A DNA stretch of 64,000 nucleotides from an uncultured bacterium (GTDB taxonomy: Bacteria > Babelota > Babeliae > Babelales > Vermiphilaceae): positions 384,001 to 448,000 of the forward strand of contig OY968764.1 of NCBI GenBank assembly GCA_963695335.1, written 5' to 3'. The translations under genes and the position numbers were made by a program. Below are positions 11,479 to 61,411 of the stretch, in pieces (positions within the stretch are counted from its first letter, which is position 1; every line of letters begins with the position of its first letter). The notes beneath the pieces were generated by a model. That model searched no databases and was not told where the DNA came from. It saw nothing but the letters and a program-made list of their open reading frames with translations.

Positions 11479-11517
11479 GCGCTTGTCCTGAGCCTGTCGA
11501 AGGATATCTTTGAGCGC
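11479..11517. repeat. Palindromic element, family A
   Basis: gcgcttgtcctgagcctgtcgaaggatatctttgagcgc; near-identical to 26527. Confidence 0.85.
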
Positions 11518-11585
11518 ATTTTCTTTAAGATAAAAAGAAATCCCCGGCGTAAACCGGGGATTAAAAACTTATTTTTATTCCCTTT

Positions 11586-13490
11586 TTAAGCGACAACCGT
11601 TAATAAATCATATCCCACAACTTTTTGCCCATCAGGATTGATAATTTTTATTTTTTTCGTACCCAGCGAAGCATGCTTCGTTGAAACTTTAACTTTAATC
11701 ATTGTCGGATCCATATATTTCACTTTTTCAACCTTAACATCGCCTGATATTTTTACTTGTAACCGGCAATCAAAATCTTTTCCAGGATCAAAAAAACCAG
11801 AACCATCATGAGATTTGCCACAAATAGTTAATGTCACGGAAGATTTGCCTTGTTTAATTTCAGCCGGAGTAACGGAAATTGGTTCTGCCGGAGCCGGTGC
11901 GCGTAATTGTGCCACTTGTACACCCCACTGATCAGTATCAACAGCATATTCTTGAATAGTCCATATCGTCATATCATCACACGGATCTACGCTTGTATAT
12001 GAATAATCACCCCAACGCAATGGGTTAGCTTGATCTTGTTCTGGATTGTATGTTGCATGAGTATTAGTATAAATTATTGGTTTTTGTAATGTTCCTTGAG
12101 GGTCATCCTTAAAACGGCGTGCAATTGCACAATTAACGAACTTATGTTCTCCAGCAGTGCTGCATCCTAGAGCCATAGTACCTTGTCCTGATATATTGAG
12201 TGATGGCATCCAAAAATAACGTGCATTAGTTCCATTTTTTTTGGTTTTATCAAATAATGTACCATGTTGTATTAATGTTGGCTGTTCATGCTTGATATTA
12301 ATTTCATACCATCGCGCTCCATCACGTGTTACTGACATTGGTGTGCAACATTTGCCTTGATTATCAATACCTACATTATGCGCGGTCCATAAGCGTCCAT
12401 CTCTTATCTGTGCCATTATAAGACGGTCACCAACAGCAGTATCAATATTTTTTTCTGCTCCCTGAGAAGGAACCGGAAGTGACTGACAGATTTGAGGAGC
12501 TTTTATTAAAAAAGGACCTTCTGCGGTTGGGGATTCACTACCTGGGTTTAATATGTTCCATAATGCCAAATGATTTGTGCTAAAACTATCTACTCCTATA
12601 AAATGTCCAACCGTAGCATCTTTATCAAAATTATCAACTCCTTGTAGAACAAATGGAGTTGATGGAGGTGAAGCAGGACTAATAAAAAAATTAAATTCAG
12701 TAAAAATAAGTTCGTTTTCTTCTATCAATGCTTTTTTATTAACAACATAAAAAGGTTGTTGTATTGGCGATACTCCTGTAGAAAGAATTAATAGACCACT
12801 TATATAAAGTGCTTGAGTATCTATGCCGAGTGTTGGGTAATCAAGAGCAAATCCTTCACCAACTTCAAAAAAATTAAAACTCCATTCGGTGAAATAACTA
12901 ATTTCTTTGGTATTACTTACTGCAAACATAACTCGATTATTTGAAGGGAATCTAGTAATTTTTTGATTTGGAGCATTGTCATCATCATCTTCTTCTTCAT
13001 CTCCTATTGTAACCATAATAATAAACCAACGTTCTGAAAAACGATCATAGCGAATCCGTATATCACTTGTAGGATTTCCATTTCTTTCTTGTACAAAAAA
13101 ATCATTTGTTGTTGCATCAAGAATTAAATCAGGCATACCAGTTTTTTTATTAAAAGAACGGATGCGGTTATTGATTGCTACAATAAATTGTGTTGGTCCT
13201 ACTGCTCCCATAGTATCTGGTGGAATTATACCACTGGTAAATGCATAATCTACTTGTTCTATTCGTGCACCGAGAAAATTCAAACCAATTTCATTATGTT
13301 TTTTATTACCACCTCTTGTTAAAGATTCATCAAGAGCTTTTCTTTTTTTTGATGTAGCCATTATTTCTGCCGTTGTGCGTGTCCCAGCTTTAATTCCTCT
13401 TCTTTGAATTCCAGGATGTCCCTGATCGGCAAGGCTTTGCATATGCATAATTACACTTGCTGTGGCCATGAGATAAAGTAATTGTTTCAT
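11586..13490 (-). CDS. Large secreted protein with C-terminal Ig/IPT-like domain
   Basis: Signal peptide; PPDTMGAVGP, LDYPTLG, RWGDYS motifs; SVTPAEIKQG...IINPDGQ tail. Confidence 0.7.
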   Translation of the reverse strand: MKQLLYLMATASVIMHMQSLADQGHPGIQRRGIKAGTRTTAEIMATSKKRKALDESLTRGGNKKHNEIGLNFLGARIEQVDYAFTSGIIPPDTMGAVGPTQFIVAINNRIRSFNKKTGMPDLILDATTNDFFVQERNGNPTSDIRIRYDRFSERWFIIMVTIGDEEEDDDDNAPNQKITRFPSNNRVMFAVSNTKEISYFTEWSFNFFEVGEGFALDYPTLGIDTQALYISGLLILSTGVSPIQQPFYVVNKKALIEENELIFTEFNFFISPASPPSTPFVLQGVDNFDKDATVGHFIGVDSFSTNHLALWNILNPGSESPTAEGPFLIKAPQICQSLPVPSQGAEKNIDTAVGDRLIMAQIRDGRLWTAHNVGIDNQGKCCTPMSVTRDGARWYEINIKHEQPTLIQHGTLFDKTKKNGTNARYFWMPSLNISGQGTMALGCSTAGEHKFVNCAIARRFKDDPQGTLQKPIIYTNTHATYNPEQDQANPLRWGDYSYTSVDPCDDMTIWTIQEYAVDTDQWGVQVAQLRAPAPAEPISVTPAEIKQGKSSVTLTICGKSHDGSGFFDPGKDFDCRLQVKISGDVKVEKVKYMDPTMIKVKVSTKHASLGTKKIKIINPDGQKVVGYDLLTVVA

Positions 13491-13648
13491 TGCTTGCTGT
13501 TCCTTTTAAAAATTATTTTTTTTACAATGTATTCAAAAGATAAAAAATAAATTTTCCCTTGGTCAACAATAATAAAAAGCTGGTCTTTTTCTTTTGTGTT
13601 GACTATTTCCCCTATAAAAGAGTAAGAAGAAAATAAGAAATAGGGGGA

Positions 13649-14443
13649 ATGAATATGAAAAAAAAATTACTGATTGTTACAGCAGCAATTATAACACCGG
13701 TCATTTTTGTTGGGCTGAGAAGAAATTCAGCTCCTCTTTTTTCTGTTGAAAAATATCAATGTGTTCAAGATGCAGCTCTTTCTGATGATTACTTTTCTTC
13801 TATTAATAATGCGCTCGCTGATTTGTGTGATAAACATTGTGCAGCGCATGTTATTATTGATCAATTGAAGCAGCAATTTCCTGTGATTAATAAAATAACT
13901 ATTGCGTACAGACCTACAGCTACCCACGTTACATTATCGGTACATGAACCTGTGTGTTGTTTGAATAACTCTATTATTCTCACAACACAAAAAGAGTTGT
14001 TTCCTAAGCATGTTTTTGCTGAGGATGCACTTACTGATATTCTGAATATTACGTGTCATTTGCCATGCGATGCTTCTTCTACCGCTCAAACCCTTCGATA
14101 CACCCCTACGGGGCACTCCCAGACTTCGCACAAGGCTTCGTCGGGCACGGCAGGGCGAGCGGATGTAAGTAGTTTGGTTACAAATTTATTGCAAAAATTA
14201 CCTTGTAACATGAGCGAAAGTTATAACATTGAGCTCATGGCAGAGCACTGTGTGCGTTTTACAGATAAACAACAGCCACAATTTGTTATCGTCTCATCTC
14301 TTGCTCAAGAAAAATTGGCGCAGTTATGTACTCAATGTAAAGAAGTTAAACGCACTATTACTGAAAAAAATGGATTTGATAAAGGAATTAAGTGGGTAGC
14401 GGATACGCGATTTGCTCATTATATTGTTGCTTATAAAGCCTAA
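13649..14443 (+). CDS. ftsQ: Divergent FtsQ-like cell-division protein with in-frame repeat insertion
   Basis: Directly upstream of ftsA-ftsZ; N-terminal TM; POTRA-like FPVINKITIAYRP..HVTLSVHEP; DTRF near C-terminus (cf. DLRF). Confidence 0.6.
   Translation: MNMKKKLLIVTAAIITPVIFVGLRRNSAPLFSVEKYQCVQDAALSDDYFSSINNALADLCDKHCAAHVIIDQLKQQFPVINKITIAYRPTATHVTLSVHEPVCCLNNSIILTTQKELFPKHVFAEDALTDILNITCHLPCDASSTAQTLRYTPTGHSQTSHKASSGTAGRADVSSLVTNLLQKLPCNMSESYNIELMAEHCVRFTDKQQPQFVIVSSLAQEKLAQLCTQCKEVKRTITEKNGFDKGIKWVADTRFAHYIVAYKA
14082..14163. repeat. Family A element with nested family B element, in frame in ftsQ
   Basis: Matches the 20166-20213 copy apart from a 1-nt indel and a 33-nt insert at 14119-14151. 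Confidence 0.85.
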
Positions 14444-14457
14444 AAAAGGGGGATATT

Positions 14458-15690
14458 ATGGCACGACTTATTAAAGATCAAATCATCGCATCGATTGATA
14501 TCGGGACAACTAAAATTTGTGTTTTAATAGCACGAAAAATTGGAGATCAATTGGAAATTATTGGAATTGGTAAATCTCCATCGCATGGTTTAAAAAAAGG
14601 AGTGGTTGTTGATGTTGCAAAAACAATTAATTCAATAAACCTTGCAGTAAAAGAAGCAGAAATGATGGCAGGTATTCCAATAGAAGGTGCGTATATCGGA
14701 ATTTCTGGTGGGCATGTGAGCGCTGTCAATTCAGAGGGTGTGGTGCCCATAAAACATGGACAAATTAAACAAGCTGATGTTGATATGGTGCTTGAAGCTG
14801 CAAAGGCAATTGCAATTCCAGAAGGACGGCAGATTTTACACATTTTACCGCAATATTTTACGATTAATGGCATTGATCGCGTACAAGATCCGATTGGTAT
14901 GCATGGAGTGCGTCTTGAAGTGCAAGCTCATATTATTATGGGATCGGTTTCATCGGTACAAAATTTAGTAAATTGTTGCCAAAGTGCTGGTGTAAACGTT
15001 AATGATATTATATTAGAACAACTTGCATCTGCTGATGCCGTGCTGAGTGAAGATGAGCGTGAATTGGGTGTTGGTGTGATTGATATTGGTGGTGGTACAT
15101 CAGATGTGGCGTTTTATAAAAATGGTTCTGTGCGACACACTATGGTTTTGCCGGTGGCCGGTAATCACGTGACCAATGATATAGCGATCGGGTTACGGAT
15201 TATGAAAAGTGAAGCAGAGAGAATAAAAAAACGTTACGGCTTTGCAATAGGTAATCTGGTGGAAACGGAAGAATTGTTAGAAGTAGAATTGATGCAAGGC
15301 GAAGATTTACAGGTGGTGCGATTATCGGATCTTGTTCTGATTATTGAATCACGTATGCGTGAGTTATTTACGCTCGTAAATGAAGATATTAAGAGAAATC
15401 ATTTAGAGCAGTTTATGACGAATGGGATTGTGTTGACAGGTGGTGGTGCATTGCTTACTGGTGCACGAGAATTAGCCGAAGAAATTTTTGATTGCCCAGT
15501 GCGTATTGGAAAACCACGTGTGTTATTTGATTTAGTAGAAACATTACAAAGTCCATTGTATGCAACAGGGTATGGGTTATTGGTTTATGTGATGCAGAAT
15601 GAAAAAAGAATTAAAATGCATTTGGCAGAGGAGCCATTGACGCGACGTGTTTTTGAACGAATGAAATCTTGGGTTTCGGACTTTTTTTAA
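14458..15690 (+). CDS. ftsA: Cell division protein FtsA
   Basis: IDIGTTKI, GLKKGVVVD, DIGGGTSD, VLTGGGA. Confidence 0.97.
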   Translation: MARLIKDQIIASIDIGTTKICVLIARKIGDQLEIIGIGKSPSHGLKKGVVVDVAKTINSINLAVKEAEMMAGIPIEGAYIGISGGHVSAVNSEGVVPIKHGQIKQADVDMVLEAAKAIAIPEGRQILHILPQYFTINGIDRVQDPIGMHGVRLEVQAHIIMGSVSSVQNLVNCCQSAGVNVNDIILEQLASADAVLSEDERELGVGVIDIGGGTSDVAFYKNGSVRHTMVLPVAGNHVTNDIAIGLRIMKSEAERIKKRYGFAIGNLVETEELLEVELMQGEDLQVVRLSDLVLIIESRMRELFTLVNEDIKRNHLEQFMTNGIVLTGGGALLTGARELAEEIFDCPVRIGKPRVLFDLVETLQSPLYATGYGLLVYVMQNEKRIKMHLAEEPLTRRVFERMKSWVSDFF

Positions 15691-15745
15691 GAATCCTAAT
15701 ATAAAATAAATATAGGTTAGTACGTTTAAAAAAAAGGAGAACACG

Positions 15746-17074
15746 ATGATAGATTTTGAACAAGAAGCGTTGCATCGTCAGAAATCAATGGTTTCAATTA
15801 AAGTGATTGGTGTTGGTGGCGCCGGGGGGAATGCTGTTAACAGCATCATAGAATCAGGCTGTCAGGGAATTGGATTTATTGTTGCAAATACAGATGCGCA
15901 AGCTTTGGAGTTTTCAAAAGCGCAACACAAAATTCAAATCGGTGTTAAGTCCACAAAAGGGTTAGGGGCGGGGGCGAATCCAGAAACTGGAAAACGTGCT
16001 GCAGAAGAAGACCTTGATAAAGTGATGGATGCTCTTGATGGAGCAGACATCGTTTTTGTTGTTGCAGGAATGGGTGGTGGAACTGGATCAGGTGCAACAC
16101 CAGTCATTGCCAAAGCATTACGTGATAAAGGCGTTTTATCAATAGCAATAGTCATTCGACCATTTATGATAGAAGGTAAGCGCCGTGCAGCAACAGCAGA
16201 AGAAGCAATTCAAAAACTGAAACAAGATGTGGATGCATTGATTATTGTACCAAATGAAAAGTTGCTCGAAGTTGTTGATGAGCAAGTTTCTATGAAAGAT
16301 GCATTTGCAATGATCAATGATGGTATTTTAAGCCAATCAGTGCGCGGATTATCTGATATTATTACACGTCCAGGGCACATCAATGTTGATTACGCTGATA
16401 TTCGCACCATTATGAAAGATCGTGGTCTTGCTGTTATGGGAACTGGTAAAGCATCAGGAAAAGGGCGTGCGCACAGTGCTGCTGTCAAAGCAATATCATC
16501 TCCATTGTTAGAAAACATGAGTGTTGTTGGTGCACGTGGCGTGCTTTGCAATATTACCGGTGGTAAAGATTTGGGTCTTCGTGAAATTAGTGAAGCTGCA
16601 TCTGTGGTATATGAACAAGCTCATGAAGATGCAAATATTATCATCGGTTCGGTCATTGATGAAAATTTAAAAGATGAAGTTATTGTAACAATTATTGCAA
16701 CTGACTTTGAAAGACAAGATGCGCAACATGTACAAGAAGTAAAAGAAGAACCTGTGATTGAATTTGTTGCACAACACGAAGAAGTTGCGCATGTTTGCCT
16801 GTCCGCCGTAGCCTCGGCGAAGGAGGATGCTGCGCCGGTGATAGAAGAACCAATTATTGAACCTCTTCCATTGCAAATGGATATGGACCTGTCCGCCCCT
16901 TCGACAGAGCTCAGGATAAACTCCACCTTGGCGAAGGAGGAGGCAAAAGAAGAAGATATGCAAGATTTTATGAAAAAAAGTCATGCAGATTTTTTTGAAC
17001 AAGCCGACAACACATTTGGCGGTGCAGTAGATTCCAAAGACTTGGATGTACCGACGTTTATGCGTCAAAAATAG
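15746..17074 (+). CDS. ftsZ: Cell division protein FtsZ
   Basis: GVGGAGGNAVN, AGMGGGTGSG, C-terminal LDVPTFMR. Confidence 0.98.
   Translation: MIDFEQEALHRQKSMVSIKVIGVGGAGGNAVNSIIESGCQGIGFIVANTDAQALEFSKAQHKIQIGVKSTKGLGAGANPETGKRAAEEDLDKVMDALDGADIVFVVAGMGGGTGSGATPVIAKALRDKGVLSIAIVIRPFMIEGKRRAATAEEAIQKLKQDVDALIIVPNEKLLEVVDEQVSMKDAFAMINDGILSQSVRGLSDIITRPGHINVDYADIRTIMKDRGLAVMGTGKASGKGRAHSAAVKAISSPLLENMSVVGARGVLCNITGGKDLGLREISEAASVVYEQAHEDANIIIGSVIDENLKDEVIVTIIATDFERQDAQHVQEVKEEPVIEFVAQHEEVAHVCLSAVASAKEDAAPVIEEPIIEPLPLQMDMDLSAPSTELRINSTLAKEEAKEEDMQDFMKKSHADFFEQADNTFGGAVDSKDLDVPTFMRQK
16798..16827. repeat. Family B element in the FtsZ linker (LSAVASAKED)
   Basis: cctgtccgccgtagcctcggcgaaggagga. 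Confidence 0.85.
16888..16941. repeat. Family B element with nested family A element in the FtsZ linker
   Basis: cctgtccgcc[ccttcgacagagctcaggataaactcca]ccttggcgaaggagga. Confidence 0.85.
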
Positions 17075-20165: not shown

Positions 20166-20300
20166 CGCTCAAACCCTTCGATACACCCCTAACGGGGCAC
20201 TCAGGGCGAGCGGAGTAAGAAGTTACAAGTATTTTATTTTTCTCTTCCGCTCATCCTGAGTGTTTTTTGTCTTCAAAAAATGTATCGAAGGATCGGAGCG
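20166..20300. repeat. Inverted pair of family A elements (REPIN-like)
   Basis: cccttcgataca..cactcagggcgagcgga facing tccgctcatcctgagtg..tgtatcgaagga. Confidence 0.85.
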
Positions 20301-20381: not shown

Positions 20382-20414
20382 ACCCAAATATTCACTACGT
20401 TTCTATTGGGGCCC
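20382..20414. repeat. Family C hairpin (degenerate)
   Basis: acccaaata..ctattggggccc, similar to 25536. Confidence 0.55.
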
Positions 20415-22815: not shown

Positions 22816-22845
22816 GATTAAGCTTTAAGAAAGATTCCAAAATGG

Positions 22846-26526: not shown

Positions 26527-26598
26527 GCGCTCGTCCTGAGCCTGTCGAAGGATATCTTTGAGCGCGCTTTAATCCTTCAACAAGTTCAGGATGAGCGC
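26527..26598. repeat. Inverted pair of family A elements
   Basis: gcgctcgtcctgagcctgtcgaagga ... tccttcaacaagttcaggatgagcgc. Confidence 0.85.
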
Positions 26599-30725: not shown

Positions 30726-31733
30726 TTATTTAACTGGTACAATATATTTTTTCATTTCTGCTGGAATCACAATATTCAACGCTTGCGCAGTCTGCATGTT
30801 CACAAATATAGCAGCCCTGTCCTTCGACCTGTCCGAAAAAGCCTTGGCGAAGTAGGAACCTAAAATAGGCAATTCATACGGTTTTTTGTGATCAATTAAA
30901 AGTTGCATAGCAATATGTGCTGCATCAACACCTGCTTGATGATAATCAACACCACGAGCCATTAATGGGCCGTATTGCACAAGCATATTATCACTTACAA
31001 TAAAAGGTTTTTGTGCTTTGCGTGCTAAGTCAGCAATCAGTGCAACGCTGTTTGCGATGGTGTTATCAGTTGGCGCAAGTAATGCGTCTACTTTACGCAA
31101 TGCGCTGATCGTTGCAGGTTCGATATCTGATTCAGATGCAACGCCGATTGTTACTGGAGTATAACCTGCACGTTCTAATTCTGTAACCATTATTTTTGAT
31201 GTAGCAACTGCATTGGTTTCAGCGGTGTTAAAAATAATTCCAACAGTTTGTATGTTGGGCAGCAGTTGTTGCATTGCTTCTATTTCAGCACGAACATTAA
31301 TCATATCACTTACGCCACAAATGTTTGATGCATCAAAACTGATCCCCAACTCTGGTGCAATAGTCACAGCTGCAATAATAATTGGTTTTGTGTTTTCAAC
31401 AGATGCCATTGCTTGCGCTGCAGGAGTTGCAATTGCATAGATTGCATCAATATCTTGGCGTGCATGGAACTGTTGTGCGATGGCATAGAGGGTATTAATA
31501 GAACCTTCACCGTTGCGGATGGTAAAACCAATATCGGCACCCAATTTTTTTTGTAGGCTGGTGATAAAACCATCTCGGGCAGCATCAAGTGCTGGGTGAG
31601 AAGCGGTTTGGATGATGCCGATAGTCCATGTATAGTTTTTTTCAGAACGATTGACTGTTTTTTTGATAATAATGGCACTGAACACAAAGGTTGCGATAAG
31701 GCAAATAGTTATGATTGCGCGATTGTTTTCCAC
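30726..31733 (-). CDS. ABC transporter substrate-binding protein with in-frame repeat insertion
   Basis: HPALDAARDGF, IATPAAQ, GVSD, PTDNT, GVDY. Confidence 0.88.
   Translation of the reverse strand: MENNRAIITICLIATFVFSAIIIKKTVNRSEKNYTWTIGIIQTASHPALDAARDGFITSLQKKLGADIGFTIRNGEGSINTLYAIAQQFHARQDIDAIYAIATPAAQAMASVENTKPIIIAAVTIAPELGISFDASNICGVSDMINVRAEIEAMQQLLPNIQTVGIIFNTAETNAVATSKIMVTELERAGYTPVTIGVASESDIEPATISALRKVDALLAPTDNTIANSVALIADLARKAQKPFIVSDNMLVQYGPLMARGVDYHQAGVDAAHIAMQLLIDHKKPYELPILGSYFAKAFSDRSKDRAAIFVNMQTAQALNIVIPAEMKKYIVPVK
30815..30857. repeat. Family B element(s) in frame in the ABC binding protein
   Basis: ccctgtccttcga-cctgtccgaaaaagccttggcgaagtagga (SYFAKAFSDRSKDR). Confidence 0.8.
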
Positions 31734-33434: not shown

Positions 33435-33571
33435 TCCGCTCGTCTAACCCCATCTTCAGTTTCTTTCGATGGGGACCCCAATTCAGCCCCATTTCCATTA
33501 TATTCCAATGGGGACCCCAATTGGAGTAAGACGTAAATTGGGAATAAAAAATTGGGGCAAAAGGATGCGGA
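33435..33571. repeat. Family C twin hairpin nested in another C element, inside an A-like remnant
   Basis: tccgctcgtc[taaccccatc..ggggacccc..[agccccat..ggggacccc..]..attgggg]caaaaggatgcgga. Confidence 0.8.
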
Positions 33572-33611: not shown

Positions 33612-33666
33612 CACCCTTCGATACATTTTACTACGTTTCACTACGTAAAACACTCAGGGCGAGCGG
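33612..33666. repeat. Family A element
   Basis: cacccttcgataca..cactcagggcgagcgg. Confidence 0.85.
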
Positions 33667-36821: not shown

Positions 36822-39614
36822 ATGAATTTTGATCCTAAAAAAACATTATTTCTTATCGACGGCTCTTCATTTTTATACCGTGCATACTACGGCCTTAAGC
36901 CATTGCATTCACCATCAGGTGTGGCAGTGCAAGCGGTGTTTAGTTTTTGCCGCATGATGAAAAAACTTATTGATACATATAAACCAGAATATGTTGCGCT
37001 CGTATGGGATAGTAAAGGTAAAACAACACGTCATACAATTTTTCCAGAATACAAAGCAACGCGTCAAGCACCACCAAGTGATATATTTGAGCAAAAAGAG
37101 TTAATTATTCAGTTTGCTCAATCTATTGGTATGCCGCAAGTACAGCAAACTGGAATTGAAGCTGATGATTTGATGTTTTCTTTAGCAAAAGACTGGGTCA
37201 GCACATCAGCTGCCCTTCGACAAGCTTCCGACTTCGCCGAGGCTTCTTCGGACGTACAGGGCGAGCGGGAGGCGGATAAGACAGTTGTGTTTGTAACCCT
37301 TGATAAAGATATGGGTCAAGCATTAACACTTGGGCAACAAATATATTTACTCGATGCATTTAAAGATCAGTTCACTGACGCTGCAGCAATGCAAATAAAA
37401 ATGGAAATTCCAGTAGAAAAAATGCCATTTTATTTTGCACTGCTTGGTGATGCTTCAGATAATATTCCGGGTGTAAAAGGGATTGGCAAAAAAACAGCGG
37501 TAGATTTGGTCAATCAGTTTGATTCACTCGAAGATATGTATGATAGACTTAATGAAATAAAAAAGGCTGGTGTAAAAACTGCATTATTAGAACAAAGAGA
37601 TAATGCGTTTTTGAGTTTCCAGCTTTTTCTGTTGCAATACACAGCACTGAACATGAGTTCAGAACAATTACTGTTTAATGCACAGAATTGGAAGCATGCA
37701 CGTCCACTGTTTGAAGAGCTTGGTTTTAAATCATTGCTCGTTACAGCGGGGGAAACAAAAGAAGAACGTGCAAAAGATGTGCAAGCTAAAATTGAATATT
37801 GGAAGAAATACAATTTTATTAATGTGACTACCGCGCAGCAATTGCATGATATGTGTGAGTATCTTAAAAAAGAAGGCGCATTTGCGCTCGACACAGAAAC
37901 TACTGGTTTATCGCCATTAGAAGTTGATTTAGTGGGAATTTCATTTTCATGTGATAAAGGAGTTGCATATTACGTTCCATGTGGTCATAAAACGGGCGAA
38001 CAACAACTTTCTTGTGATGAAATTATTGCAATATTGCGACCAATTTTAGAAAGTTCACAGTATAAAAAATATTTGCACAACGCAAAGTACGATATGTTAG
38101 TGCTCAGCAGTCATGGTATTGAATTAGCTGGTGTTGCACTTGATACACTTGTGGGCGCAAACTTAATTATTAAAGAATGGCAGAGCGCTGGTTTAAAAAA
38201 ACTGTCGCATGCGTTTTTTAATGAAGAGATGTTAACGTTTGAAGATGTAGTAAAGACGGGAAAATACAAAGACTTCTCTTTTGTACCAGTTGAACTAGCT
38301 GGGCTCTATTCATGCGCGGATTCGTATCAAACATATCGCCTTGTTGCGATCATCAAAGAAGCGTTTGAACAAGATAAAAAATTGTATGATTTGTATACAA
38401 ACATTGAACACCCATTGATTGAAGTTTTGTATGAGATGGAAAAAGAGGGTGTCAATTTAGATACGCATTTATTGCGTGAGCTGAATATAAAAGTTACGGC
38501 AGATTTGGCGGTGATTGATGCAGAAATTGCGCATGTTGTGGGTAAAGAAAAAATTAATCTTAATTCGCCAGCGCAAATGGAACATCTTTTGTTTGATGTG
38601 CTGCAGTTGCCACCACAAAAAAAGAGCCCAACGGGTAAATTTTCAACTGATGCAGAAGTGCTTAAAGCGTTAGCAACAATGCACCCGATTCCTGCATTGA
38701 TTATTAAATATCGTGAGTTGGCAAAACTGAAAAATACTTATATCGATGCCTTACCAACATACGTAAATAAAAAAACAGATCGTGTGCATACAACATTCAG
38801 TCAAACATCCGTTGCAACAGGGCGGCTTGCAAGCTCCAATCCTAATTTACAAAATATTCCTGCAGATGCATCTGGATACGGTATAGAAGTACGTGCAGCA
38901 TTCAAAGCGGGTGCAGGGCGTTTATTTATTTCTGCTGACTATTCGCAAATTGAGTTGCGCGTGCTTGCGTATTTGTCACAAGACAAAAATTTAATGAATG
39001 CATTTTTACGTGGGCATGATATTCACACCGAAACTGCTGCGCGTTTATTTGATGTTGAGTTGGCAGCGGTAACGCATGAACAAAGACAACTTGGTAAACG
39101 TATTAATTTTAGTGTTTTGTATGGAATGACACCGTACGGATTATCAAAAGATTTGGGTATTCCGTTCAAGCAAGCAAAGCAATATATTGAGCGTTATTTT
39201 CAGCAATATCCTGATGTTTCCACATGGATGGAATCTATTATAGAATTTGCGAAAAAACATGGATACGTGGAAACGTATTGGGGACGCAGACGGTATATTC
39301 CTGCTATTTATGAAAAAAATCGCACCATGTATGAAGAAGCATGCCGTGTAGCAATTAATACAGTTGCACAAGGAACTGCAGCAGAGATTATGAAATTGGG
39401 TATGTTGGCCGTCCGCAAAGAGTTGCAAACGCGTTTTAAAGATAGTTGCATTGTTTTACAAATTCATGATGAATTGATTGTGTCTGCGCCTGAGCAAGAT
39501 GCATTAGCAGTTGAGATGTTGGTTAAACGAGTGTTGGAATCTGTCGTAAAGTGGGATATCCCTCTTGATGTGAGCACGCGCAGTGGTGCTGATTGGAAAG
39601 AGATTACAAAATAA
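36822..39614 (+). CDS. polA: DNA polymerase I with in-frame repeat insertion
   Basis: IDGSSFLYRAY, GDASDNIPGV, DTETTGL, TGRLASSNPNLQNIP, ADYSQIELR, QIHDEL. Confidence 0.98.
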   Translation: MNFDPKKTLFLIDGSSFLYRAYYGLKPLHSPSGVAVQAVFSFCRMMKKLIDTYKPEYVALVWDSKGKTTRHTIFPEYKATRQAPPSDIFEQKELIIQFAQSIGMPQVQQTGIEADDLMFSLAKDWVSTSAALRQASDFAEASSDVQGEREADKTVVFVTLDKDMGQALTLGQQIYLLDAFKDQFTDAAAMQIKMEIPVEKMPFYFALLGDASDNIPGVKGIGKKTAVDLVNQFDSLEDMYDRLNEIKKAGVKTALLEQRDNAFLSFQLFLLQYTALNMSSEQLLFNAQNWKHARPLFEELGFKSLLVTAGETKEERAKDVQAKIEYWKKYNFINVTTAQQLHDMCEYLKKEGAFALDTETTGLSPLEVDLVGISFSCDKGVAYYVPCGHKTGEQQLSCDEIIAILRPILESSQYKKYLHNAKYDMLVLSSHGIELAGVALDTLVGANLIIKEWQSAGLKKLSHAFFNEEMLTFEDVVKTGKYKDFSFVPVELAGLYSCADSYQTYRLVAIIKEAFEQDKKLYDLYTNIEHPLIEVLYEMEKEGVNLDTHLLRELNIKVTADLAVIDAEIAHVVGKEKINLNSPAQMEHLLFDVLQLPPQKKSPTGKFSTDAEVLKALATMHPIPALIIKYRELAKLKNTYIDALPTYVNKKTDRVHTTFSQTSVATGRLASSNPNLQNIPADASGYGIEVRAAFKAGAGRLFISADYSQIELRVLAYLSQDKNLMNAFLRGHDIHTETAARLFDVELAAVTHEQRQLGKRINFSVLYGMTPYGLSKDLGIPFKQAKQYIERYFQQYPDVSTWMESIIEFAKKHGYVETYWGRRRYIPAIYEKNRTMYEEACRVAINTVAQGTAAEIMKLGMLAVRKELQTRFKDSCIVLQIHDELIVSAPEQDALAVEMLVKRVLESVVKWDIPLDVSTRSGADWKEITK
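37213..37268. repeat. Family A element with nested 30-nt family B element, in frame in polA
   Basis: cccttcgacaagct[tccgacttcgccgaggcttcttcggacgta]cagggcgagcgg. Confidence 0.88.
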
Positions 39615-39642: not shown

Positions 39643-39972
39643 TTAGCATTTTTTAGTTGTTTTTTTATGTTGTAGAGAAATTTTAAGTGAATATCCTAAT
39701 GCATGAGCAACTTTAGCAAGTTTAGATATAGATGTATTTGCATATCCACCATTTTCCATGCGAGCAACAGAAGGTTGCTTAACTTTTAGTTTTTTCGCTA
39801 AATCTTCTTGTGATATGTTTGATGATTTACGAGCTTTAATAAACTCCATCATAAGTTCAAATTCAGGGCGCAATGCTTCATATTCCGCTCGTACCTTTGC
39901 ATTTTTTAACACTTCTTCTCTAAATGTTTTATAATCTGGCAGTGTTTTAAGGGTTGGTCGTTTTTTATTCAT
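39643..39972 (-). CDS. XRE-HTH antitoxin (HigA-like)
   Basis: ISQEDLAKKLKVKQPSVARMENG; overlaps the toxin stop. Confidence 0.88.
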   Translation of the reverse strand: MNKKRPTLKTLPDYKTFREEVLKNAKVRAEYEALRPEFELMMEFIKARKSSNISQEDLAKKLKVKQPSVARMENGGYANTSISKLAKVAHALGYSLKISLQHKKTTKKC

Positions 39973-40297
39973 ATTCTTTTACCTCTTCCATACGCTTTAA
40001 CGCTAAATTCATTTCTTTTGATGGCGTTTTTTCTGTTTTTTTTATGAAGCCATTAAGAATTATAATCATTTTTTCTTTAATTAGGCAAAATAAAGCTCGT
40101 CCTATGCCCTCACTACCTTTAGCTCTCATTTCAAATAAGCCTTGTCCTAGCGCTTTGATATGCGGCATACCAATTTTATCTAGACCTCGTTGCTCTATGA
40201 CATTAATTATCCAAAGTAATTTTGCAAGTATTCCCTCTGGCCATTCTTTGATACTATTTTCAACCTTTTTATTATAGAATTTTATTTTCCAAGCCAT
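39965..40297 (-). CDS. RelE/HigB-family toxin
   Basis: MPHIKALGQGLFEMR, GFIKKTEKTP. Confidence 0.9.
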   Translation of the reverse strand: MAWKIKFYNKKVENSIKEWPEGILAKLLWIINVIEQRGLDKIGMPHIKALGQGLFEMRAKGSEGIGRALFCLIKEKMIIILNGFIKKTEKTPSKEMNLALKRMEEVKEYE

Positions 40298-44191: not shown

Positions 44192-44215
44192 TAAAACAAA
44201 GTAGTGGTGAGGTTT

Positions 44216-44267
44216 ACCCTACGTCCTTCGACAGGCTCAGGATGAGCGGAAGATAGCGTAGTAGGGT
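44216..44267. repeat. Family A element nested in a B-like element
   Basis: accctacg[tccttcgacaggctcaggatgagcgga]..gcgtagtagggt. Confidence 0.8.
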
Positions 44268-45484: not shown

Positions 45485-47206
45485 ATGAAAACTCGTGATA
45501 TTAAAACAGCTGATTCTGCGCAAATAGAAGAGTCGCAAACAGCACAAACCGTGGAATCTTCTCAGGCTACTCCACAACCAACTCGTACACGTGCTCCAAG
45601 AGCACCTAAAAAAGATAAAGTGGTAGAAACAGCTACACATACGGTGTCTGAAGAGCCACAAAAGTCAGTAACATCCGACTATGCTTCGTCCTCCGCTAAA
45701 AGCTACGGAGAACACAGCAAGGCTTCCTCTGTTGCTGAAGCTATGAAGGACAGGTCGTCGGACAGGTCAGAATCAACAAGGCCTGCAGCGCAAGAGCATT
45801 ATTTTGAGCGCGATGCAATGCCGCAAGATCGTAGAAATGGAAATGGGCAGTATGTCCAACCTCGTGAAGTACGCGAAGAATATAATCGTCCAACGCAACA
45901 ATATTCTCAGCAAGGTTCATACGATCGTTCAGGATACACACGTCGACCATTAGAAGATTTATCATTGTCAGAACTCGTTCAATATGCTCGCCGTTATGGT
46001 ATCATGGGCGCGGCAATTACTAAAAAAGATGAGTTGCTCAAAAAAGTTCGTTACGCTGAAGAACATCCAAATGCTGAAATGGCAGTCGAGGGGGTTTTAG
46101 AAAAATTACCTGATGGATTTGGATTCTTGCGTTCAGCATTATATGATTACGTTTCAGGGCCAGATGATATTTATGTTTCTCCATCACAAATTAGACGTTT
46201 TGGTTTGCGTACGGGAGACACTATCAAGGGTGAAATAAGAAAACCAAAAGAAGGTGAAAAATATTTTGCGCTATTAAAAGTATCGCAAGTAAATTACGCT
46301 GAACCTCTTTCTATGATTGATAGACCTCATTTTGACAGCTTGAGTCCGCAGCATCCTATTTCAAAATTCAATCTTGAATTTGATCCAACAGCACTTTCTA
46401 CCCGTATTCTTGATGTATTCACACCGATTGGTAAAGGTCAGCGTGGTTTGATTGTAGCTCCTCCTAAAGTTGGTAAAACGTTGTTGCTTAAAGAAATTGC
46501 GCGAGCAATTATTAGCAATCATCCTGAAGCACATCTTATGGTACTTTGCGTGGATGAACGTCCTGAAGAAGTTGCTGATATGCGCCGTACGCTTAAAGGC
46601 ACCACAGCAGAAGTTATCAGTTCTACATTTGATGAACCTGCAGAGCGTCATGTTCAAGTGGCGGAAATTGTTTTGGAAAAAGCAAAACGTTTAGTTGAAT
46701 GTAACAAAGATGTGGTTATTATTCTTGATTCTATCACTCGTCTTGCGCGTGCATATAATACCGTTGCTCCTGCATCAGGAAAAGTACTGACTGGTGGTAT
46801 TGATGCATACGCACTGCAACATCCAAAACGATTTTTTGGTGCAGCACGTGCCACTGAAGAAGCTGGTTCATTAACTATTTTAGCTTCTGCATTGGTAGAA
46901 ACAGGTTCGCGTATGGATGAAGTTATTTTTGAAGAGTTTAAAGGTACGGGTAACATGGAAATGAATATGACGCGTAAACTTTCACACCGTCGTATTTTCC
47001 CAGCCTTTGATCTGTTAACTTCTGGAACTCGTCGTGATGACTTATTACTTTCTGAAGAAGAACTTAATAAAGTTTGGATTCTGCAGAAATTACTTTCTAC
47101 GATGAATACTATAGAAGGTATGGAATTCTTGATTGATAAAATGAAGAAGACCAAAACCAATGCTGAATTTTTTGAATCGATCAATAAACGAACCGCTGAA
47201 ATGTAA
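45485..47206 (+). CDS. rho: Transcription termination factor Rho with long N-terminal extension
   Basis: [55 protein letters not shown]. Confidence 0.98.
45674..45766. repeat. Family B element carrying two nested B-like elements, in frame in rho
   Basis: tccgactatgct[..gctaaaagctacggagaacacag]caaggct[tcctctgttgctgaagctatgaaggacagg]tcgtcggacagg; 93 nt. Confidence 0.75.
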
Positions 47207-50033: not shown

Positions 50034-50883
50034 GGTTCTGTTGAGTTTTCATCGTAACCATATGCAAGTTCCCACAAAAGAAAGAAAAGATAAAAAATTT
50101 CGTGCCGATTTATCAAAACGAGCAAACACTCTTCTAAAGTGTTTTATCTTTGAAAACAAGCATTCAATCGCATGTCTCTCTTTATATAGATGTTCATCAT
50201 ATTGATATTGTTCTTTACGATTGGATCTTGGAGGAATAACGGGAACACAATTTTTTTCTATTAATTTCGAACGTAATTCAGTGGAATCATATCCTTTATC
50301 CGCTATTACATATGATTCAGAAATATCTTTTAATAAAATATCAGCCTGAGTAATATCATTACGCTGACCAGGAGTAATAACAAATCTTAAAGGATTGCCT
50401 AAAGCATCTACTGTTGCATGTATCTTACTTGTAAAACCACCTTTACTTCTTCCCAGTCCTTCATTTTTAAATTGATCATATCCAGCAGAACAGGCATGTG
50501 CGCGGACTATCGTGGCATCAATCATTACATATTCCATATCGGGATCCTCTGCACAAAAACTGAGTAATTTTTCCCAAATATGTTTTTTTGACCAAGCATT
50601 AAATCTGCTGAACACACTATTCCAATTTCCATATTTTTCCGGCAACTCTCTCCATTGTGCTCCTGTTCTTGCCATCCAAAATGTCCCTTCTATAAACTTT
50701 TTACAGTCCTTTTCTTCTTTTATATAAATGTTTTTTTGCTGTTTTAAAAAATTAAAAATTTTGCTCCAGGCCATTTCGCTGATATACTCTTTTTTCATGA
50801 TAGCACCGTTTTAGTGATTTGGTTTTTGCTTTTTCGGTGTTATCATACTTCAAAACTTATCTTTTCAAAAACTCAACAGAACC
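50034..50883 (-). mobile_element. IS5-family insertion sequence, 850 bp
   Basis: 16-bp perfect terminal IRs GGTTCTGTTGAGTTTT; TA duplicated on both sides. Confidence 0.93.
50049..50798 (-). CDS. IS5-family DDE transposase (single ORF)
   Basis: RTGAQWRELP, IDATIVRAH, GRSKGG, ADKGYD, YKERHAIE. Confidence 0.95.
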   Translation of the reverse strand: MKKEYISEMAWSKIFNFLKQQKNIYIKEEKDCKKFIEGTFWMARTGAQWRELPEKYGNWNSVFSRFNAWSKKHIWEKLLSFCAEDPDMEYVMIDATIVRAHACSAGYDQFKNEGLGRSKGGFTSKIHATVDALGNPLRFVITPGQRNDITQADILLKDISESYVIADKGYDSTELRSKLIEKNCVPVIPPRSNRKEQYQYDEHLYKERHAIECLFSKIKHFRRVFARFDKSARNFLSFLSFVGTCIWLR

Positions 50884-54332: not shown

Positions 54333-54469
54333 GCGCTCGTCCTGAGCCTGTTTAACCCCATCTTCAGTTCCTTCAGACGGGGACCCCGGTTTGGAGTGAA
54401 ACGAAAACTGGGGCAAAAGGATATCTTTGAGCGCTCGAGGATACCCTTCAACAAGTTCAGGGCGAGCGC
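54333..54469. repeat. Family A inverted pair, first copy split by a family C twin hairpin
   Basis: gcgctcgtcctgagcctgt[ttaacccc..ggggacccc..actgggg]caaaaggatatctttgagcgc; compare intact 26527. Confidence 0.88.
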
Positions 54470-56420: not shown

Positions 56421-56560
56421 TCCGCTCGCCCTGAGTGTTTTTGTCTTCAAAAACGTATCGAAGGGTATGCGGAAATTTAGTAATTTTAAGATTTTTTTAT
56501 TTTGCACCCTTCGATACATTTTACTACGCTAAAGCTTCGCAAAACACTCAGGGCGAGCGG
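56421..56560. repeat. Inverted pair of family A elements
   Basis: tccgctcgccctgagtg..gtatcgaagggt ... cacccttcgataca..cactcagggcgagcgg. Confidence 0.88.
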
Positions 56561-56585: not shown

Positions 56586-56624
56586 GGGGGTCCCCAATTG
56601 GAACATAGTGTAGATTGGGGTTAA
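56586..56624. repeat. Family C hairpin (reverse orientation)
   Basis: ggggtccccaattg..gattggggttaa. Confidence 0.7.
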
Positions 56625-56625
56625 G

Positions 56626-57306: not shown

Positions 57307-57396
57307 TTTAGCCTGCTTCTTTATAGGTTTAAAGAATGTCCTTATGATTAATATACCTAGAGTAACTGAAAGATTTTTTAATTTCAAAGGATTTGT

Positions 57397-57864: not shown

Positions 57865-57872
57865 ATAGATGT

Positions 57873-58325: not shown

Positions 58326-58441
58326 TTCCATGTATCTTCATGGCTAACTCTTTTTGCATCTTGAGTGTCGCGTGATTCAGCGATGAGCGATAATATCAAA
58401 TCTTCTAATTCTTCTAAATATTCTTTGTTTTCTGTAGACAT
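58322..58441 (-). CDS. 39-aa ORF, possible antitoxin remnant
   Basis: MSTENKEYLEELEDLILSLIAESRDTQDAKRVSHEDTWN*, AGGA upstream; below the ORF-track cutoff. Confidence 0.45.
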   Translation of the reverse strand: MSTENKEYLEELEDLILSLIAESRDTQDAKRVSHEDTWN

Positions 58442-58566
58442 ATACATCCTTTGTATGCATAAAAATATACGATTAGCATGATGTTTTTGGGTAGGCAAGT
58501 CAAGGGGTCAGGGTATTGAGCAGGAATAGGCCGAAAGGCGAAGAAAGCCACTAAAAATGGACCCTT

Positions 58567-58595
58567 TTGCGATTGTTTCTAAGGTTTGGTAAACT
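58567..58595 (+). promoter_or_regulatory. Sigma70-like promoter
   Basis: TTGCGA-17-TAAACT with TG extended -10; related copy at 59849. Confidence 0.6.
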
Positions 58596-58649
58596 TATTA
58601 GTGATAGATATTTATATGATCTTAACTGCCTATAGGGGGAATTATAGGG

Positions 58650-59684
58650 ATGTTATTAAAAAAGTTCTTTGTTATTGTAATCTTGAGTATGGCAGGGTTT
58701 GCTTGTAATCTCACTGCAATGCAAGGATTAATAGCGAATTTTTATCATAATCTTACGTTGAAGAAAAAAAAGCCAGATTATAGTATCAATTTGATGTGGA
58801 TTAATGAAAATCTTAAGAAAGATCAAGAATATATTCATCCATCAAATGATGAGTTTGCATCAACTATTTGTAAATGGGCAGCTCTTAATAAAGATGGTGT
58901 AGTGAATGTTTGGTATGATGAAGAAATGACGACCACTGATGCGATAAAAAATACCCATAAAGCCATTATAAGAGAATGTTCACAATATTCGTATAAAGCT
59001 CTGGTGCGATTAAAAAATGTGAGAAAGTTATCTGAAGTCAAAGAGCATCCCAAAGCCTTTTCTGATAAAATGCCTGTATATTTTCGTGCGGATCTTTTAC
59101 GTTCCACCGCGGGATTTAATCATATATCGAGAAATAAAATTAATTATTTTGTGTATAGTGATTTAGATGCAGAACCTATAACAGAAAAACAGCTTTTTGA
59201 TGAAAAAACTAAAGAAGATCTTAAGCGATATGGTATGGTTTTGACTAGGCCTTCTGAATTTCCTGGCTATTCAGGTTTTGAAAATAGTTTTCAAATTATG
59301 AGTAATCATAAATCAAATCTTTTACAGGCAAAAAAAACTGCACTGATAGATCTTAATATTAAACGAGCTTATGATGTACAAGATAAAAATTTGTCAGGAG
59401 TCAAATCGCTTGAGCAAGCTGTATATCGTAGTTATAACGATATGTTTAAATATTTTTATCATCTTGAAGGATGTGGTGAATTTAAGGTACGTTCTTCTGA
59501 AAAAACGTTAGAACGTTACGATAAAGATAAACATGGATTAGAGCCTTTTGAGAGGCATATGTTTTTTTTTCCACGTGATAATTGTTGTAATGGAAAAGAT
59601 TTTAGACATGGTGGTTTTATTCCTACAAAAGAAGTCAATGTGCCTTTATCTGTTCATTTTGGTCCTGGTTCTCATAAAAGTTGA
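58650..59684 (+). CDS. Secreted DxD (GT-A) glycosyltransferase, effector/toxin-like
   Basis: INLMWIN, NVWYD, RADLLR, VYSDLD, FENSF; signal ..LTA|MQ. Confidence 0.7.
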   Translation: MLLKKFFVIVILSMAGFACNLTAMQGLIANFYHNLTLKKKKPDYSINLMWINENLKKDQEYIHPSNDEFASTICKWAALNKDGVVNVWYDEEMTTTDAIKNTHKAIIRECSQYSYKALVRLKNVRKLSEVKEHPKAFSDKMPVYFRADLLRSTAGFNHISRNKINYFVYSDLDAEPITEKQLFDEKTKEDLKRYGMVLTRPSEFPGYSGFENSFQIMSNHKSNLLQAKKTALIDLNIKRAYDVQDKNLSGVKSLEQAVYRSYNDMFKYFYHLEGCGEFKVRSSEKTLERYDKDKHGLEPFERHMFFFPRDNCCNGKDFRHGGFIPTKEVNVPLSVHFGPGSHKS

Positions 59685-59771
59685 GTTTAGAAATATAAAA
59701 AATGTGGCTATCTTTGAAAAATAGGATGGCCGCATCTTTTTTTGGTAGGCAAATCAAGTTCTTTTTTTGTT

Positions 59772-59842
59772 GGCGACAGCCAGAAGACCGTGTCCTTCCG
59801 AAGCCTTGGCGAAGGAGGAAGCCCGATAAGGGCGAAGACTGG
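59772..59842. repeat. B-like element with nested family B element
   Basis: ggcgacagccagaaga[ccgtgtccttccgaagccttggcgaaggagga]agcccgataagggcgaagactgg; outer part is an inverted match to 61159-61195. Confidence 0.8.
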
Positions 59843-59848
59843 GCCCTT

Positions 59849-59877
59849 TTGCGGTTATTTTCAAGGTCTGGTAAACT
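59849..59877 (+). promoter_or_regulatory. Sigma70-like promoter
   Basis: TTGCGG-17-TAAACT with TG extended -10. Confidence 0.6.
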
Positions 59878-59917
59878 TATAATAAGTGATAAATATGACC
59901 TATTTTAGGGGGGAATT

Positions 59918-60286
59918 ATGAAAAAAGTATTAGTTTCATTATTGATGATATCTGGGACAGAAGTATTGTGTGTACCTTCATCTGGTTTAGGCACTCCTGG
60001 GGGGAAGCCTTCTGATTATCTACGAATGTTGCCTGAGAATTCACAAATTAGGCAAAGATGTATTGGAAATGGCACTTCTTTGAAAAAAGAGAATAAAGAA
60101 GCTTGTGATATTATGAGAAGTTATTTAGCTATAAATTCTGGATATGAATCTGGATGGTTTTCTGAGATTGATAGCAAAAAAGTACATGAGGCTTGGGATA
60201 TTTTAGTAGATGCTGAGAATAAAGATAATGAAGAAAAAAATGTTAAATTAGCAGTACAAAAACTTATCAATAGAATGGTGGTTTAG
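59918..60286 (+). CDS. Hypothetical secreted protein
   Basis: MKKVLVS leader. Confidence 0.7.
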   Translation: MKKVLVSLLMISGTEVLCVPSSGLGTPGGKPSDYLRMLPENSQIRQRCIGNGTSLKKENKEACDIMRSYLAINSGYESGWFSEIDSKKVHEAWDILVDAENKDNEEKNVKLAVQKLINRMVV

Positions 60287-60294
60287 GCGAAATC

Positions 60295-60774
60295 ATGAAA
60301 AAAGTATTAGTTTTATTATCGATAGCTTTTGTTACTCAAGGATCATTGCTGGCGAGTGAGCAATCTGTTTATAAGAATTTGAGTAATATGCATTTTAGAT
60401 ATTCTCGCATTGAGCAAGAATGTGCTGATGTACATAGCAGATGGTTTAAGGGTGAAATTAAAAAAATTTGTGATAGATTCGATAACCATCTTGAAAATGG
60501 CAAAATAGATGGTAATGAATTTGAAAAATTTGATATCAAAGACCTTAAACGAGAAGTTTCATCGCCAGAATGGCAAGAAGCTCAAGTAAAAAAGATTGCT
60601 GATTTTAGATCAGAAACGTATAATGTATGCATATCAGAAATACATACAATGTTTCCTGATATGCCTGAAGATGTAAGAAAGGATCACTGTCAAATAATGG
60701 CTCTCAATGCATATTCGTTTTATGCCAATAATTTTTATGTATTTGAATCAGCTATTCGTGATAGTGTAAAATAA
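60295..60774 (+). CDS. Hypothetical secreted protein
   Basis: MKKVLVL leader. Confidence 0.7.
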   Translation: MKKVLVLLSIAFVTQGSLLASEQSVYKNLSNMHFRYSRIEQECADVHSRWFKGEIKKICDRFDNHLENGKIDGNEFEKFDIKDLKREVSSPEWQEAQVKKIADFRSETYNVCISEIHTMFPDMPEDVRKDHCQIMALNAYSFYANNFYVFESAIRDSVK

Positions 60775-60796
60775 AAATTTTATTCTTTGAAAATTC

Positions 60797-61161
60797 GGGG
60801 GCGTACTGGCTTCGACGTGTTGTTAGTCGCCTTGAGAGCATGCCGAGCGTTGATTGAGTGCTCGTTAAACAATTGATCGAAAAACAAATGCAAATCAATT
60901 TGATTTTGCTCCAGCTGTTGCTTAGGCAATAAGGTGGCTTATTGGATTAACGTGTCTGTCAGTTGAACCAATTCGTATAATAAAAAGATAGAACTTCCGG
61001 GCGAGATTGAACTGTTTAGTAGCCCGAGCACGTACCACAAGTAGTCTCATATAATCTGCTGTGTCTTTGAGGTGTTATATGAGTATATTCAGAGAATAAG
61101 CATGTAGCGCTTGGGGTTATTTGTAATGCGGACATGGGTTCGATTCCCATCGCCTCCACCA
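60797..61161 (+). ncRNA. ssrA: tmRNA; tag peptide ANQFDFAPAVA (60890-60925)
   Basis: 5' GGGGGCG..GCTTCGAC, 3' GGTTCGATTCCC..CGCCTCCACCA; Ala acceptor stem with G.U pair; 365 nt; near smpB. Confidence 0.95.
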
Positions 61162-61411
61162 GTCTTCGCCCTTACAGGCTTCGTCTGGCTGCGCCGCAAA
61201 AGAAAGAGTTAGCAAATATAAAAAGTTTGATAGCAGAAGGCGAAGACTGTCCGACGTAGCTTTAGCGTAGACGGACGGCTTGGTACGGTTTGCCCTTCGT
61301 AGCTCGTTAGAGCGTAGTAGGGCCAGCTTTTTAAAGGTTGGGCTAAGAATTAAAATTAAAGATCGATACTCAAAGCGAAGGCTGTCCGCCAAAGCCTTGG
61401 CGACGGCGGGC
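61159..61411. repeat. Cluster of four family B/B-like elements after ssrA
   Basis: Approximately 61159-61195, 61247-61275, 61290-61322, 61382-61410. Confidence 0.8.

Follow-up and report, generated by a model that had tools for sequence, protein, structure and literature searches.

Hairpin repeats nested at fixed bonds in a Vermiphilaceae genome, and the pairing of two repeat families with small GIY-YIG nuclease genes

The stretch of DNA analysed here, hereafter the window, comprises 64,000 nucleotides (C1:384001-448000) of the single contig (C1; 1,366,684 bases, 35.7% G+C) of an uncultured Vermiphilaceae bacterium, G000, and carries three families of short hairpin repeats, designated A, B and C, whose copies lie inside one another. 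Our analysis revealed that these repeats insert at fixed bonds and that A and B adjoin the genes of two separate clades of small GIY-YIG nucleases, T1 (UPF0213-like, 95 amino acids (aa)) in the case of A and T2 (Slx1-like, about 80 aa) in the case of B. The reading that we favour, with confidence a little above even, is that A and B are partners of T1 and T2 that lack a gene of their own and spread by nicking and copying.

Results

The three hairpin families

Units of family A consist of a CGYTCR tag and a hairpin, the outer three pairs of which were complementary in 214 of 275 copies, with ten compensatory types (the core TGA...GAA was fixed by the search pattern in this count). Family B units have an NCCTG-like tag of 4-5 bases, mostly ending in TG, and a hairpin of 26-28 bases, while family C is built of ~34-base monomers with a GGGGW tag, arranged as a head-to-head pair with a common GGGGWCCCC. 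Profile searches (>=12 bits) gave 317 A, 131 B and 88 C merged loci genome-wide, with 14, 15 and 8, respectively, in the window, and a single match in the reversed genome, which served as control. The A pairs of G000 were arranged with tags outward in 65 cases and inward in 40, and the sole Rfam match at gathering score in the window was the transfer-messenger RNA (tmRNA).

The genes ftsZ, polA and rho, and the one preceding ftsA, contain copies that keep the reading frame. Across G000, 40 of the 51 B copies within genes were antisense to the gene (p = 6e-5), which may reflect strand-specific insertion, or selection either on the encoded peptide or on termination; the window copies concerned by this strand bias are those at 6082, 14118, 30827, 37227, 42845 and 45686.

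Nesting in excess of chance

The nests cited in the initial annotation, each of which was re-read, were all present within 5 bases of the positions given for them, and the nesting rate proved well above chance. Non-coding B copies lay inside A in 26 of 69 cases (3.7 expected, p = 7e-16) and C loci with matching A sequence on both sides in 23 of 53 (2.9 expected, p = 8e-16; 11 more matched on one side), although these p-values are overstated because some composites are copies of one another. Among the coding B copies (n = 51), eight were inside A and ten inside B, with fewer than 0.1 expected for each, and four cases of A in B were found genome-wide.

The initial annotation had proposed that the mobiliser targets hairpin DNA, with older elements acting as landing pads. 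The nesting excess bears out the second part, whereas targeting of hairpin DNA in general was not supported. When B was removed from copies that lie neither in an A or B host nor near a tRNA end, a hairpin was predicted across the junction in 8 of 36 non-coding cases compared with 263 of 1500 random sites (one of the 36 flanks was mis-cut, and the 36 include copies reassigned later, either to the second position of a tRNA-end B pair or to guests within C), and in 6 of 33 coding cases compared with 268 of 1500.

Fixed bonds at the junctions

A census of B sites began with 134 matches, of which 14 were dropped (four inner A loops, seven partial copies or host halves, three weak or atypical), leaving 120: 18 at a first site in A, 16 at a second site in A, 13 in B and 73 elsewhere. 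At A site 1, B joins cleanly at NNNTG|AG in a single orientation, with 17 host/guest combinations in the 18 cases, and this junction recurred in 23 of 261 genomes of the phylum, from 18 genera and 7 families (control, 2 matches). Site 2 is TG|TYGAA, and the sites in B hosts are CG|AAG and the loop. Family C enters A with one end fixed at TCG|AA and its other end accompanied by a deletion of variable size, and within C hosts it substitutes the loop, joined after TT on each strand.

Insertion of C, and of A into B, costs host bases, whereas insertion of B into repeat hosts is clean. The A guests of the two window cases removed 4-7 host bases, and three of the four A-in-B cases have the same junction as that at 44212. 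No target-site duplication was found, the 65 A dimers being indistinguishable from shuffled controls and B inserting cleanly; the flanks of free A units are ragged, and no outward inverted extension was found around A dimers that lack a gene. The commonest sites are two opposed G|A steps in the stems of A and B: TGA...GAA is invariant in A, B enters the 5' G|A step and the fixed end of C joins the 3' one. These facing steps are probably stacked (sheared) G.A pairs.

We also considered that no enzyme chooses the sites, and that replication slippage or template switching among the GC-rich hairpins of this AT-rich genome produces the nests while selection tolerates sites of prior insertion. The families do have short words in common (CCCTTCGA; GCGAAG), three of the four A-in-B junctions sit at such a word, and insertions in genes survive only in frame. 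Tolerance cannot explain the use of one bond in one orientation (11 observed against 0.06 expected), however, nor can it explain the clade-specific pairing of genes and repeats described below, and we regard this explanation as very unlikely.

Nests in the window

Two A hosts in the window contain a clean B guest. The one at 14090-14162 (minus strand; re-read), with its guest at 14118-14150 joined at NNNTG|AG, lies in frame in the gene upstream of ftsA (the ftsQ position; no Pfam match), the orthologue of which in the sister species G005 (polA identity about 82%) has neither element. The empty form of this host, of the same subtype, is the A copy at 20173-20213, part of two head-to-head intact A copies at 20173-20293. 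The second (37213-37268, minus strand; guest 37227-37256) is in frame in polA and is missing from all ten aligned relatives.

The reciprocal arrangement occurs in ftsZ, where a B host at 16887-16941 (plus strand) contains an A guest at 16898-16925 with loss of four host bases, in frame, near an intact in-frame B in the C-terminal linker (16797-16827, plus strand), and again at 44212-44266 (plus strand), where the A guest (44224-44254) displaced seven host bases. B is nested in B at three places: at 59772-59842 (plus strand; guest 59787-59818); at 45674-45767 (minus strand), where one host has guests at the loop (45686-45717) and at CG|A (45725-45755), the whole lying in frame in the N-terminal extension of rho and being absent in G005; and at 30827-30857 (plus strand), where the guest stands behind the left arm of its host (CG|) in an ABC substrate-binding gene. 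The last is additional to the nests of the initial annotation, and one contig piece spans it without differences.

Family C is the guest in the remaining composites. At 33436-33564 (plus strand) a C dimer (33484-33549) substitutes the loop of a C arm and the outer C substitutes the middle of an A, giving a triple nest. At 54333-54469, the first arm of an A dimer holds a C dimer (54352-54416) with loss of CG; its empty form is the intact A dimer, tags outward, at 26527-26598.

Order of insertion and copying of composites

Comparison with G005 was feasible for 54 of the 79 composite loci of G000. The same composite was present at none of the 54, and 45 had no pattern match to any family. At C1:1353617, G005 has the same A with B absent, and at the site corresponding to 44212 the host B is the same but is filled by another B in place of A (by eye); from the empty A, and from the same B with a different guest, it follows that the insertions were sequential, the host first and the guest second.

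The initial annotation had recognised that the composites might be one fixed element. This applies to some, which appear to have been copied as units, and fails for others, which the G005 comparisons show to be independent, both processes having contributed. Seven near-identical C-in-A inserts, including that at 54352, look copied whole, as do seven B-in-A composites with one common leader; a CCGTG-type tag is present in 15 of 18 guests at A site 1 compared with 7 of 73 other B; and the left and right stems of the host are mismatched, i.e. chimeric, in 4 of 17 B-filled A compared with 5 of 179 intact A (p = 0.004). In the sequencing runs, comprising four low-share DNA runs from one study with no RNA run listed, no joints were found.

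Such signs of copying, together with the duplication of nested guests in both arms around T1 genes (see below), are what would be expected if a few accidental nests had then spread as fixed composites, or by a homing-like gene conversion from filled to empty copies, the fixed junction reflecting descent and not repeated targeting. Against this stand the 17 host/guest combinations in 18 cases, the recurrence of one bond across 18 genera while host and guest vary, the single B host with different guests in two species, the absence of every composite from the 54 orthologous G005 loci and the mere 11-14 host bases available on each side for recombination. We consider this explanation unlikely, though a genuine contender.

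T1 nucleases are flanked by inverted A repeats

The initial annotation had noted that no cognate enzyme gene lies in the window, and indeed neither a GIY-YIG nor a Y1 domain was detected by Pfam in its 65 open reading frames (ORFs). Of the candidates that it placed elsewhere, the GIY-YIG nuclease is supported for A (T1) and B (T2) by the pairing of genes and repeats, while the search for a C partner was negative (see below). Apart from UvrC, three stand-alone GIY-YIG genes are present in G000, among them a T1 gene (C1:565521-565808, minus strand) and a T2 gene (C1:205103-205345).

The nuclease set comprised 62 loci, made up of the top of a phylum-wide search and the complete lists from ten same-genus genomes, and yielded 52 intact ORFs: 34 T1, 17 T2 and one Ssn-type (L031) with a CGTC/TGTC repeat. 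The T1 and T2 proteins have a single GIY-YIG domain and fewer than 150 aa, with the catalytic Tyr, Gly, Arg, His and Glu positions invariant in both alignments. Each formed one clade (100/97), apart from the single long-branch L031 protein, to which T1 and T2 were 37% and 33% identical; we take the two clades to correspond to cd10456 and cd10449, respectively. The best match of T1 was 1zg2 (E 6e-15) and its predicted fold was closest to UPF0213, whereas that of T2 was closest to HIGLE/Slx1 (TM 0.73-0.74), the models having pLDDT values of 90.7 (T1) and 91.7 (T2). Genes of both clades are patchy in distribution, multi-copy, sometimes broken and flanked by repeats.

An A copy upstream and a reversed A downstream, as scored with the G000-trained profile, bracket the gene at 23 of 34 T1 loci and at none of the 17 T2 loci; several of the remaining T1 loci show A variants by eye, and the A subtype follows the T1 subclade (by eye). 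At five loci (L071, L081, L037, L020 and L047) the two arms are near-identical over 93-185 bases, nested guests included, and at L081 the near-identity extends over about 70 bases of unique outer flank. The T1 layout was also seen in Sphingomonas and Methylobacterium records. Of 24 T1 matches on plasmid records, the four examined comprised two with inverted A-like flanks and two, Bacillus subtilis yazA and one broken gene, without; of three loci in viral contigs, one had A-like flanks by eye.

T2 nucleases, B pairs and tRNA ends

The T2 unit has a different order: tRNA or tmRNA end, reversed B starting from the CCA, spacer, forward B and T2 gene, the B pair being upstream of the gene only, which stands outside an inverted bracket. 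Among metagenome relatives of T2, 70 of 80 loci had enough upstream DNA; B was upstream in 45 of the 70 and downstream in 8, with A in 1. A tRNA 3' end preceded the gene in 40 of 70 (control 5), and B began at the CCA in 38 of these 40. This tRNA-end B is present at 16 of 35 tRNA/tmRNA ends in G000 and at 6 of 32 in G005. Three C monomers, at C1:19073, 471388 and 1319973, were observed a few bases past a tRNA CCA, apparently in B remains.

In the window, the CCA end of the tmRNA (60797-61161, plus strand) is the target of such a B-pair unit. The DNA that follows (61159-61412, plus strand), with a reversed B from the CCA (61159-61195), a forward B (61240-61275) and two more B copies, is a relic of a T2 unit in which the gene is absent; the tmRNA of G005 has a different B pair and a T2 gene (frame interrupted at the start) ahead of the same terminator.

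The ten bases starting from the CA of the CCA recur as a perfect complement downstream, before the T2 gene, at 26 of 40 loci compared with 4 of 1456 swapped pairs, and in the rows examined (upstream regions of L426-L505; window 61159-61250) this complement is the head of the second B. It may be a guide, an RNA switch or an inverted duplication. If it is a guide, the nucleases might themselves join DNA or direct its joining, with T2 using 5-10 bases at the foot of B for base-pairing in the manner of IS200/IS605, which would agree with the clean, strand-specific insertion of B without duplication. The tags of nested B copies, however, match their targets no further than TG, and several follow CG; the complement may instead be an RNA-level switch or an inverted duplication, and GIY-YIG enzymes are hydrolytic, without a covalent intermediate. 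Guided joining of this kind seems improbable to us.

Co-occurrence across genomes and the transposase candidate

Repeats and nuclease genes were counted in 80 genomes of the family from 46 genera, among which kin are not independent. The median A count was 60 in genomes with T1 and 1 in those without, and over the 46 genera the coefficient rho was 0.61 for A with T1, 0.14 for A with T2, 0.53 for B with T2 and 0.35 for B with T1. The sole same-genus genome without a stand-alone GIY-YIG gene, G001, had one A, no B and no C-dimer matches.

The other candidate of the initial annotation, a RAYT/IS200-type HUH nuclease, fared poorly, as Y1 genes did not track the repeats in the same 80 genomes: at least 20 A copies were found in 7 of 24 genomes with Y1 compared with 23 of 56 without, and at least five B copies in 7 of 24 compared with 30 of 56. 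G000 does have three identical, equal-scoring IS200/IS605 TnpA copies (C1:369218, 574578 and 1166633), suggesting recent activity, and the clean insertion of B resembles peel-and-paste, as would be expected if a RAYT or IS200/IS605 HUH transposase moved the repeats in trans with the GIY-YIG genes as passengers. The gene nevertheless matches the IS200/IS605 equivalog (148 bits), while its RAYT score of 29.6 falls well short of the cut-off (80), and the copy examined has its own end hairpins and just one family member within 450 bases, a B about 315 bases downstream that is in frame in the neighbouring gene and absent from the G005 orthologue. No RAYT gene flanked by A, B or C repeats was found in G000, and we consider the transposase explanation largely refuted, with only a slim residual chance.

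Family C

The C dimer pattern was found in G000, in 8 of 10 same-genus genomes and in 1 of 250 others. C-type monomers (GGGGTCCCC, stem-loop, GGGGT) occurred, among the matches listed and with chance matches included, in Acidobacteria, other phyla and phage contigs (loci L119, L120, L135, L180, L183, L185 and L219-L368); one 134-kb contig had at least nine, and several of the monomers listed lay, by eye, inside CGTC-type or other hairpin repeats. G000 also has another non-coding repeat, the fourth, which is longer (several hundred bases; C1:189500-190050, 1099590-1099990 and 1190100-1190200), includes several hairpins and is bounded by diverged C monomers.

The search for a C partner gave no candidate by eye among the genes beside 56 C loci of G000, no recurrent family among the ORFs near monomers in 146 loci, among the matches listed, and no nuclease or transposase family in the 72 of 119 neighbouring ORFs that were scanned (Pfam, E<=1e-6). 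DUF559, considered as a partner, was rejected, being absent in five of five genomes. In the favoured reading, C is a third hairpin of the same build as A and B.

Other features of the window

A free B at 6082-6112 (minus strand) adds 30 bases in frame to a gene whose G005 orthologue is empty. Other dispersed copies are those of A at 11480, 23455, 23502, 33613, 56422 and 56506, of B at 22845, 42845 and 56045, and C monomers at 20382, 25536, 26701, 44135 and 56587. Two of these A copies (33613-33666 and 56506-56560) are of a long-loop subtype, the inner hairpin of which scored as B in four copies genome-wide and which is perhaps an old B-in-A composite turned subfamily.

Among the neighbouring genes, an IS5-like DDE transposase (DDE_Tnp_1 and DUF4096; 50049-50798) showed no visible link to A, B or C. 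A toxin-antitoxin-like pair of Gp49-like (DUF891) and HTH genes directly follows polA (39643-40297), the end of the pair and the end of polA having 30 bases in common. The gene for a 634-aa protein at 11586-13490 had no Pfam match, is missing from the G005 alignment and has two tandem homologues in G008.

Discussion

A proposed mechanism

The nuclease SsnA cuts single-stranded DNA adjoining its own hairpin (PMC11893778). By analogy, T1 and T2 would bind A and B hairpins in single-stranded DNA and would nick in or beside them, after which host repair would copy in a hairpin from a free copy or from an existing composite. Binding, cutting and copying are inferred from the SsnA precedent and from two signatures of copying, the near-identical T1 arms and the chimeric stems of B-filled A. 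On the proposed mechanism, older copies would serve as landing pads because they would be substrates of the nucleases, and not as just any hairpin.

Several observations weigh against nicking and copying by T1 and T2. Clean, strand-specific insertion of B is a behaviour associated more with HUH transposases than with break repair, and SsnA cuts outside its own hairpin, not in the stem (PMC11893778). The folding program gave A only a weak and different fold; neither A site 2 (16 cases) nor the B loop sites are G|A steps; and free B copies depart from the G|A rule, the guest being followed by A in 11 of 56, whereas this held for 27 of 32 guests in B or at A site 1. A clean empty-host pair was seen at only one of the 54 comparable loci. 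Across genomes, B abundance also tracks T1, T2-only genomes are mostly B-poor (median 2), 5 of 21 genomes without T1 and T2 still have 13-34 A copies, and 3 of 5 T1-only genomes have at most three A-pattern matches. Finally, C has yielded no partner gene.

A broader form of the proposal, which we put forward as speculation and think rather unlikely to hold in full, is that GIY-YIG nucleases of 80-95 aa mobilise several widespread hairpin families, one per clade, cutting stems at stacked G.A pairs and producing mutual parasitism at fixed bonds, and that the T2 unit is an autonomous element of ~450 bases entering the CCA ends of tRNA and tmRNA genes with a 10-base guide. If true, this would be a class of mobile DNA without transposase, integrase or reverse transcriptase.

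Comparison with known systems

For the comparison of B insertion we take the peel-and-paste mechanism of IS200/IS605 elements. Like these, B inserts cleanly, on a specific strand and without duplication, and has a short tag at the foot of its hairpin; unlike them, its partner is a GIY-YIG hydrolase and not an HUH Y1 enzyme, and the insertions of A and C are ragged, with deletions. Miniature inverted-repeat transposable elements of DDE transposases also differ, as A and B have no target-site duplication. The best matches of T1 (sequence and fold) and T2 (fold) are, respectively, the housekeeping UPF0213/YazA proteins and eukaryotic Slx1/HIGLE, though B. subtilis yazA, unlike T1, is in an operon without flanking repeats.

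The closest layout is that of the Ssn nucleases (cd10448) with their NTS/SRM repeats, in which, as in T1/A, a single-domain GIY-YIG gene of ~95 aa lies between inverted tag-plus-hairpin repeats with tags outward and hundreds of repeat copies lack a gene; the Ssn paper itself likens this arrangement to an insertion sequence (PMC11893778, Chenal et al. 2025). Neither strand of G000 had a match to the published SRM pattern, the tag of A is CGYTCR where the Ssn repeat tag is HGTC, T1 and T2, with their UPF0213-like and Slx1-like folds, each form a clade apart from the one Ssn-type protein included, and T2, at tRNA ends, is not enclosed by its repeat pair. The nested A/B system appears to work like Ssn/SRM and is not a member by the motif test. 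As far as its covered text goes, the Ssn paper describes neither nesting at fixed bonds nor mobility (PMC11893778). In the literature covered, we found no description of T1/A, of T2/B at tRNA ends or of fixed-bond nesting; the supplements and Fig. 5a of PMC11893778, outside that coverage, may list repeat-flanked GIY-YIG genes beyond the Ssn clade.

The three families also resemble the CGTC and GTAG repetitive extragenic palindromes (REPs) and their REPIN/BIME dimers, being tagged hairpins of 20-40 bases that form dimers and reach high copy numbers, polA being among the replication and repair genes that contain copies in frame (PMC3733652, Di Nocera et al. 2013). A, B and C have neither a GTAG nor a CGTC tag, however, and no RAYT. 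A few REP families are likewise inserted in other palindromes, and in that paper two of three target palindromes were not found empty, whereas in G000 each family that acts as host or guest also exists free and in abundance, and the nesting goes both ways. The presence of in-frame inserts in core genes (ftsZ, polA, rho) of a small AT-rich genome recalls the Rickettsia palindromic elements (RPEs; as cited in PMC3733652), the likeness drawn here being one of insertion pattern; for A and B, candidate enzymes and fixed nesting sites are identified.

CGTC repeats apparently have no dedicated transposase (PMC3733652), and the Ssn work, in its covered part, shows cutting and not movement (PMC11893778). 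How non-RAYT REPs and RPE-like repeats spread is the open question addressed here, to which G000 adds two nuclease-repeat pairs and the exact cut bonds predicted from nested junctions. With two of three hairpin kinds adjoining their own tiny nuclease genes, a route of spread without transposase becomes testable with short oligonucleotides and proteins of 80-95 aa. Should the predicted cutting be borne out, it would account for the short peptides inserted in FtsZ, PolA and Rho, and site-specific single-strand nucleases would extend beyond Ssn.

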